This document shows positions 33,921 to 35,664 of a stretch of 64,000 nt of DNA, piece after piece. The notes under the pieces are model-generated. The model was not told where the DNA came from. It was given only the letters and a program-made list of their open reading frames with translations, and searched no databases. The stretch is from Monocercomonoides exilis PA203 (lineage: Eukaryota; Protista; Preaxostyla), in assembly GCA_001643675.2 (NCBI GenBank), contig LSRY02000030.1:558001-622000 (forward strand), written 5' to 3'. The stretch's first letter is position 1. Each line of letters opens with the position of its first letter. The position numbers and the translations under genes are program-made.

Positions 33921-35664
33921 TTACACGGTACACTCTTCGCGAAGCTCGCGAGGAATGTCTGAGAACCTGTTAAAAAAGAAAATAAACAAAATTTTGGATT
34001 TTAATAATAATAATAATAATAATAATAATAATAATAATAATAATAATAATAATAATAATAATAATAATAATAATAATAATAATAATAATAATAATAATAA
34101 TAATAATAATAATAATAAAACAATTTTTTCTTTCTTTGTTTATTTTATTTATTTAAAAAGAAAATGCTTCTCAATTCCACTCAACCCCCCAATTATTTTT
34201 CAACATCTCACTCTCAAATCATCATACCAAGGATGAGCCATGGCGGCTTTTGCAGAAATTCTACGAGCAGGGTCATACTGAAGCATGGATGTCAGCAAAT
34301 CGAGTCCAGATGGGTCGAGTGTAGGGACAGCTGAAGCCAGTCCGCGTGGTGGATACTCCGGAAGAGGCGTCTGAGACACAGTTATTATTATAGCAATTAT
34401 TATTATTATTATTTAAAAAAAAGAAGTTGAAAAACAAAATATAAAATAAAATTATTATTTATTTATAATTCAGCATAATTATATAATAATAATAAGATAT
34501 TTGTTCAACTAATTTTGACATTAAAGGTAACACACAGCAAGAGATGTTGTAAACTCAGTTAGACCAGGCCACACTTCGGTTGTTGGCGTTCCAAGTAATC
34601 TGATTTTAGTTCAATAAATAATCAATCATAATAACAAGCATGATAAAGCAAAAAAAAAAAAAAAAAAAAAAAAAAAAAAAAAAAAAAAAAAAAACTCCAA
34701 AAATTTTGATCATATAAAATCCTGACCATTTGTATCATAAAAAAAAGATAGAGAGAAAAAATATAAATAGAAAAATACTATATCTAATCCCTTCAATTTT
34801 CAAAAATTTCTGCATCATTGAGAATTGCTTTATCGATCATACTTGAAGATTCTAACCAGTTCGTCTTGATCTGATGAACCAGGGAACAACGGCCTTCCAG
34901 TAACCAACTCAGCAAAAATACATCCACAACTCCAAATGTCAACAGGAGTTGAATATTTTCTATTGCCCAACAGCACATCGGGGGCTCTGTACCATAAGGT
35001 AACAACTTCATGAGTAAATGAACGCACAGGAATGCCAAATGCACGAGCCAAGCCAAAATCACCAAGCTTGAGTTTCAAATCTTTTGAAATGAACAAGTTT
35101 TGTGGTTTTAAATCTCGGTGAAGCACTCTTCTTTGATGGCAATATGCTACTCCTGCCAATAACTGATACATCAAACTCTTAATAATTGGAACAGCAACAC
35201 GTCCTCTATTCATTTCCAAGTACTTTTTCATGTCAAAATCGAGGAACTCAAAAACCAAGGTAAGCTTTTTGTCCGAATGTATAACATCTTTAAGTTGAAC
35301 AATATTTGGATGATGGAGTTCTTTCAAAAGAGAAATTTCTCTGATTGCAGTACTTGGAACGCCTAATAGAAAAAACAAAACATAACACTGAAAATATAGA
35401 TGTACAAGAAGCATTTTATAAACCTTCTTCTTCAGATTCTAAACGAATCCTTTTGAGTGCAACAATCTCTTTTGTAACTTGTAAACAATCAAAATGAATA
35501 ACACATCAAAAAACAATAATCCACAAAAAATAAGAAATTTAAATGAGAAATTTTCAAAAATTGATGAATCAATAATCAATAGAAAATTGCATATTGTGTC
35601 TTGCTTTGTAGACAACTCCATATGTGCCTTCTCCTGCCTTGTCAATTTTTTCATAATTATCCAT
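33921..35664 (-). CDS. Cyclin-dependent kinase, PSTAIRE type (cdc2-related, CDK5/Pho85-like); 6 exons
   Basis: Exons 35664-35595, 35480-35424, 35362-34843, 34599-34536, 34370-34228, 33966-33921 give [33 protein letters not shown]...[17 protein letters not shown]...HRDLKPQN...[13 protein letters not shown]...[28 protein letters not shown] resembles CDK5. Intron 1 is non-canonical (AT-AC). Confidence 0.95.
34002..34116. repeat. (AAT)n microsatellite, ~38 units, in the last CDK intron
   Basis: Perfect trinucleotide run inside intron 33967-34227. Confidence 0.95.
35481..35594 (-). other. AT-AC intron (114 nt) in the CDK gene
   Basis: Junction CAC A|ATATGCAATTTT...TTGATTGTTTAC|AA GTT. No GT donor fits, the intron contains an in-frame stop, and removing it restores Y15/K33 numbering. 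Confidence 0.75.

Follow-up and report, generated by a model that had tools for sequence, protein, structure and literature searches.

This locus raises the question of whether a gene for a cyclin-dependent kinase (CDK) in Monocercomonoides exilis, a protist without mitochondria, is interrupted by an intron with AT-AC ends, and of which spliceosome would remove it. The passages available from the 2019 genome paper state that M. exilis is without AT-AC introns and without minor-spliceosome components (PMC6759080). We studied a window of 64,000 nucleotides, which is the whole stretch of DNA analysed; the other papers cited are likewise represented by their available passages.

The CDK gene and its AT-AC intron

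The spliced match of the window to P0001, the annotated M. exilis CMGC/CDK kinase, recovered the whole gene with the AT-AC intron, four GT-AG introns and the exact protein. The model starts at the ATG at 35664, includes five coding introns and reaches a stop ending at 33921, and over the large downstream exon its identity to P0001 is 100%. The features of the gene are as follows.

35667..35760, minus strand: 5′ UTR intron with GT-AG ends, 94 nt; joints in X6, X7 and X8, with 21-26 bases on the short side
35595..35666, minus strand: first coding exon (ATG at 35664; Gly loop, T14/Y15), from RNA contigs and the spliced P0001 match
35481..35594, minus strand: AT-AC intron, 114 nt; spliced out in 5 of 5 RNA-like runs, with no base changed in 3 of 3 DNA runs
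35589..35594, minus strand: donor ATATGC, the local pattern GT(A/G/T)TG(A/C/T) with A at +1
35569..35571, minus strand: in-frame TGA inside the AT-AC intron, codon 32
35488..35509, minus strand: candidate branch motifs, two copies of TTGAT, with putative branch A at −9 (35489) or −26 (35506)
35481..35483, minus strand: acceptor TAC (pyrimidine at −3, A at −2, C at −1), directly adjoined by an unused in-frame AAG
35424..35480, minus strand: 57-nt exon with catalytic K33, from RNA contigs and the P0001 match
35363..35423, minus strand: GT-AG intron, 61 nt; joint in 5 of 5 RNA-like runs
34843..35362, minus strand: exon with PSTAIRE, HRD and DFG motifs, from the sequence and the P0001 match
33921..34842, minus strand: three GT-AG introns (34600-34842, 34371-34535 and 33967-34227) and the exons to the stop, from the spliced P0001 match

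The AT-AC intron begins with ATATGC, ends with TTTAC and has a G+C content of 19%. It lies in phase 1 inside codon 24, after CDS base 70. The original prediction called the preceding exon "exon 1". It is indeed the first coding exon, but it is exon 2 of the transcript and the AT-AC intron is transcript intron 2, since the 94-nt intron of the 5′ UTR (GT-AG) comes before it.

To compare RNA with DNA, we used eight of the nine runs that contain the region (X4 was left out). Five of them are RNA-like: X5-X8 are metatranscriptomes of one study, and X9, from a second study, is of unrecorded library kind and is spliced. The contigs of all five join 35479 to 35594 and skip 114 bases, with an ambiguity of 1 base, and their exons show no differing letters. 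In X9, the joint has a depth of 3.9 and 38 bases on the short side. On the DNA side, single contigs of X1, X2 and X3 each cross the intron with 0 other letters and show no GT or AG ends. These three runs share a single sample, possibly the one from which the window derives; thus, they rule out a per-run error at the intron ends but do not represent an independent isolate. Precise removal from the mRNA of a segment that is present in the DNA, which defines a spliceosomal intron, was therefore found in five of five RNA-like and three of three DNA runs. The observation that the CDK gene carries an AT-AC intron which is removed from its RNA is confirmed.

The protein leads to the same intron. An in-frame TGA stands at codon 32, so the protein would end after 31 residues if the intron were retained, and splicing of the AT-AC intron is thus obligatory for the kinase. 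Excision of the 114 nt restores the N-lobe of the CDK with Y15 and K33 in place. All ten in-frame GT-AG or GC-AG alternatives lose at least 8 of the first 42 residues, and a GC-AG intron four bases in causes a frameshift. The TG-AG junction that the original prediction had named as an alternative (HNITKE) and an AT-AG junction (HITKE) were both absent from the joints listed for the five runs, which include no second junction for this intron; minor use is possible because rare forms drop from contigs. No RNA contig in the five runs spans the interior of the intron; contigs reveal the predominant form but not the proportion in which it occurs. Just two registers yield P0001, namely AT-AC and, one base over, TA-CA, and both give the same mRNA.

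The best solved relatives of the kinase were CDK2 (406 bits), CDK1 (402 bits) and CDK5 (381 bits), and a cell-cycle role is plausible from this resemblance. In a tree of 30 homologues with midpoint root (P0075, an older M. exilis model, and 169 others were left out), P0001 clustered with P0002-P0004 and the PSTTIRE paralogues; this tree does not settle whether the gene is of CDK1/2 or CDK5 type. In addition, residue 10 (35635-35637, minus strand) is Ala where CDK1/2 have Ile, and the closest relatives P0002 and P0003 have it in common. Further downstream, an RNA loose end at 34843 runs on into the next exon. The last CDK intron, if retained, would give a short alternative C-terminus (34200-34227, minus strand) with a stop a few codons in.

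Splice signals and the spliceosome

As a reference, we used a small set of 19 local GT-AG introns. Five belong to the CDK gene (two RNA-joined, one with an RNA loose end and two from P0001 alone), and 14 were read by hand, without RNA, from a gene at 46297-52.3 kb. The latter is a fifteen-exon gene (46297-52300, plus strand) whose exons join into an open frame of 1074 codons. Position +4 is T in all 19 local donors and position +5 is G in 18 of them, which is a yeast-like GTATGT pattern. In other lineages, T at +4 accompanies the loss of U6 methylation by METTL16. The original prediction had described ATATGC as the local donor with A at +1, and this fits the GT(A/G/T)TG pattern: ATATGC scored 5.7 bits on +3 to +6 against the 19 local donors, whose own leave-one-out scores ranged from −4.8 to 5.5. 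Scores as high were reached at 0.6% of 3311 intron-interior positions and at 3 of 464 positions after an AT. The prediction had also counted GTATGC three times in a gene called SEC6. The donor does occur in 3 of the 14 hand-read introns, but the name could not be confirmed, as 10 single-exon pieces of the gene gave no Sec6 Pfam match and no homologue was found.

The donor likeness also bears on the register. Nine other registers all scored below zero (TA-CA −9.4 bits, TG-AG −10.9 bits), and AT-AC is thus favoured over TA-CA. A cut at TA-CA would give an identical mRNA, but it has no donor likeness. Against an excision by something other than the spliceosome, the intron matches its spliceosomal neighbours in being of similar length, poor in G+C and rich in T at the 3′ end; the window contains no match to an Rfam family, and the single base repeated at the ends makes template switching unlikely. 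We consider that a TA-CA cut or a non-spliceosomal excision has almost no chance of being correct.

At the 3′ end, the T fraction of 0.63 lies inside the local range of 0.30-0.74. The local introns are without a strong branch consensus; the TTGAT motif, which occurs twice in the AT-AC intron, is absent from 5 of the 19. The intron contains no internal AG, and its terminal AC is its sole AC. We rejected the lack of AG as a special trait, as 5 of the 19 local introns are likewise AG-free, and 791 of 20,000 shuffles of the 114-nt intron were also AG-free.

The signals of U12 introns, taken from the original prediction and PMC5029451, were absent, as had been predicted. Against the donor RTATCCTT there are 3 mismatches in the 6 positions +3 to +8 (2-5 in the local GT-AG introns), and the best match to the branch site TCCTTAAC near the 3′ end has 4 mismatches in 8 (2-4 in the local introns), which is no better than in the GT-AG neighbours. 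Phase 1 is typical of U12 introns. The intron is in phase 1, AT-AC ends are typical of that class, and the donor shares ATAT and the C at +6 with ATATCC; hence one could imagine a degenerate intron of U12 type that is removed by a divergent minor spliceosome, so far overlooked. However, 18 of the 19 local major donors have the same G at +5, a U12 branch motif is missing, and minor components are reported absent in the available text of PMC6759080. In addition, no Rfam family, including the minor snRNAs U11, U12, U4atac and U6atac, was found within the 64-kb window. A U12-type intron is therefore very improbable. The ends are AT and AC, with a donor context in the AT-AC register only, and the inner 5′ signal is major-like. 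With this U2-like donor, no U12 motifs and minor-spliceosome components reported absent (PMC6759080, in the passages available), the intron removed in the RNA contigs is very probably of the U2-type AT-AC class, with predicted processing by the major spliceosome as originally proposed.

The following mechanism can be proposed for U2-type splicing. U1 and then the U6 ACAGAGA box would read the inner donor positions +2 to +6 (TATGC), which match ordinary host donors. A(+1) would then be attacked by a weak branch A, which probably belongs to one of the two TTGAT motifs. In the second step, A(+1) and C(−1) would form a non-Watson-Crick pair in place of the usual G-G pair, while A(−2) would pair with the branch A and U(−3) would fit the Prp8 pocket. 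The A(+1)-C(−1) pair together with U(−3) in this pocket would explain why TAC is chosen over the AAG three bases on. The in-frame AAG behind TAC is unused in every assembled contig, which fits the selection of C(−1) by A(+1). According to the passages available, donor positions +4 to +6 pair with U6 in yeast, and the two terminal bases of the intron contact each other in a non-Watson-Crick pair, for which A-C is one option (PMC11585973). Furthermore, the P complex of the major spliceosome was modelled to tolerate AU/AC ends, with the A-C pair modelled and not observed (10.1101/212811), and an AU/AC end pair suppresses 5′ site mutants in yeast (10.1101/212811, PMC11585973). For the U12 class, the mixed pair of ends AT-AG is described as unfavourable (PMC3584512). 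The unused AG three bases away makes this intron a clean test case for the A(+1)-C(−1) pairing model.

Weak ends might also slow splicing and so limit or regulate CDK levels. Retention gives an early stop, and A-type ends lose to G-type ends in a human minor-intron reporter, which involves a different spliceosome (PMC8280824, passages available). However, the inner donor ranks with the top local matches, and the spliced form alone was assembled in five of five RNA-like runs, which is a weak argument since contigs drop rare forms. Thus, a regulatory role of this kind appears improbable.

Origin and age of the intron

The intron could be old and Preaxostyla-wide. It may be the relic of a U12 AT-AC intron that kept both ends as its inner signals moved to the U2 pattern; conversion from U12 to U2 by a shifted site is known (PMC2846911, in part). 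This origin is compatible with U2-type splicing. Among 200 homologues, 185 have a Gly loop and a catalytic-Lys motif, and the remaining 15 are without the N-terminus. The spacing of the two motifs was normal in 183 of the 185, and the two exceptions were P0075, the older M. exilis model, and P0123, a genome model of Paratrimastix pyriformis. P0123 leaves the true frame after G16, runs through 43 unrelated residues and comes back at residue 24. At base 70, these read-through residues are compatible with CAC as the intron end and incompatible with AG. P0123 stood beside a Trimastix protein in the tree of 30 homologues, with low support (81/19), and the Paratrimastix annotation was built with Augustus, PASA and EVM, as described in the passages of PMC10703272. 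In addition, another homologue, P0094, also re-enters the frame at residue 24. Its CDK N-terminus resembles a read-through intron, a hint that in another lineage an intron may sit at base 70 or 71.

However, the residues of P0123 also permit canonical ends at bases 67, 71 or 73, and by inspection a GAG end at base 75, and an assembly error could produce the same mis-model. An intron at base 70 was found in none of four intron-bearing CDK loci (L003, L008, L009 and L010), which is a very small sample; among 13 fetched, these were the loci that cover the region and were counted, the rest being intronless or other kinases and left out. Moreover, in conserved genes of M. exilis 65 of 201 introns are ancestral, and about two thirds are not (PMC6759080, in the passages available). 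DNA of an oxymonad or Paratrimastix CDK orthologue was not found in the metagenome (8 loci; 31 of 64 parts), genome (2 loci) and viral (3 loci) collections. The mis-model of P0123 at the same codon suggests that the AT-AC intron may be old, and it should be taken as a lead and not as a result. An old intron with a possible U12 past is thus conceivable but doubtful. It is rather unlikely that the intron at codon 24 predates the oxymonad/Paratrimastix split, came possibly from a lost minor class, is now fully major-spliced and is the first of a hidden Preaxostyla set of AT-AC introns masked by GT-AG-only gene finders.

Some related loci deserve mention. In L009, an intron with GT-AG ends lies at base 75. 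L009 (71-986) and L010 are intron-bearing eukaryotic CDK genes on contigs in bacterial genome bins, and they are likely contaminants. In X2, loose ends at 35599-35631 belong to a related CDK sequence that matches the first coding exon and continues with D-Q-R and GTGTGC. There, a GT donor likely follows codon 25; this is where the intron of L009 sits, and the AT-AC position is five bases away. This related CDK may be the paralogue P0006, whose annotation is without the N-terminus.

Annotation history and comparison with known AT-AC introns

The RNA-supported intron contradicts the claim, in the available text of PMC6759080, that M. exilis has no AT-AC ends; its absence claims are thus fallible. 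The published statement is hereby corrected, and the locus illustrates how such an error can come about. Two false GT-AG introns account for the older model P0075 (MONOS_8986). One, invented by the gene finder, runs from 35613 to 35467 and cut the N-lobe of the kinase; the other lies in the large exon. As this model was built with GT-AG introns only, the AT-AC intron was hidden, and we infer that such gene models are the reason why the 2019 paper saw none. The residues of P0001 are correct, which means that the current annotation already splices at the AT-AC intron.

Among other sources, each available in part, candidates for five snRNAs were reported in M. exilis with data not shown (PMC6679479), a table gives about 35,000 introns (PMC8767320), and a minor-intron survey includes the species in a figure (PMC10639083). 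The passages available from PMC8767320 gave no mention of non-canonical intron ends. We found no published report of an AT-AC intron in M. exilis in a search that most subscription papers lay outside. The intron is new for M. exilis, and the U2-type AT-AC class is rare but already known. The surprise is therefore limited, all the more as the current annotation gives the right protein. What the locus offers is natural, obligatory and RNA-supported AT-AC splicing in a cell reported to have the major spliceosome only, and it illustrates that AT-AC ends are no marker for the minor spliceosome.

Known AT-AC introns differ from the present one in several respects. The human genome has 85 major AT-AC or related introns, and animal U2-type examples include SYCP2 intron 5 and TAF2 intron 1 (PMC8280824, passages available). 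The CDK intron shares with animal U2-type introns the AT-AC ends, the major-type inner signals and the lack of U12 motifs. However, the animal consensus is ATAAGT (PMC5029451, in part), whereas M. exilis has ATATGC on its own GT(A/G/T)TG pattern and is reported to be without any minor spliceosome. In Giardia, an AT-AC intron was described by Roy et al. 2012, as cited in passages of PMC3510501 and PMC6679479. Giardia is also a metamonad with GTATGT-like donors and an AT-AC intron, but its introns number about 11, its snRNAs are hybrids and its branch and acceptor motifs are fused; in M. exilis there are about 35,000 introns of conventional type (PMC8767320), and the CDK intron is without such a fused motif. 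The RPL30 intron of Saccharomyces likewise shows AT-AC splicing in a species without the minor spliceosome (PMC5029451, passages available). It is, however, a side product of 1-2% with an atypical donor, whereas the CDK intron is needed for the protein and its removal gives the sole form assembled. U12-type AT-AC introns are alike in their terminal dinucleotides, but the CDK intron has neither the ATATCCTT donor nor the TCCTTAAC branch site. Furthermore, EST surveys, as far as their available passages go, report non-U12 AT-AC introns in species without U12 RNAs.

Other features of the window were also noted. Broken or split pieces of DDE transposases lie at 27396-28589 and 32169-32867 on the plus strand (Pfam DDE_Tnp_4 and DDE_1). 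In addition, a long open frame at 41722-44733 on the minus strand has the splicing helicase PRP16/DHX38 as its best solved relative (977 bits; next family 756 bits), and its position about 6 kb from the CDK gene is probably a coincidence.
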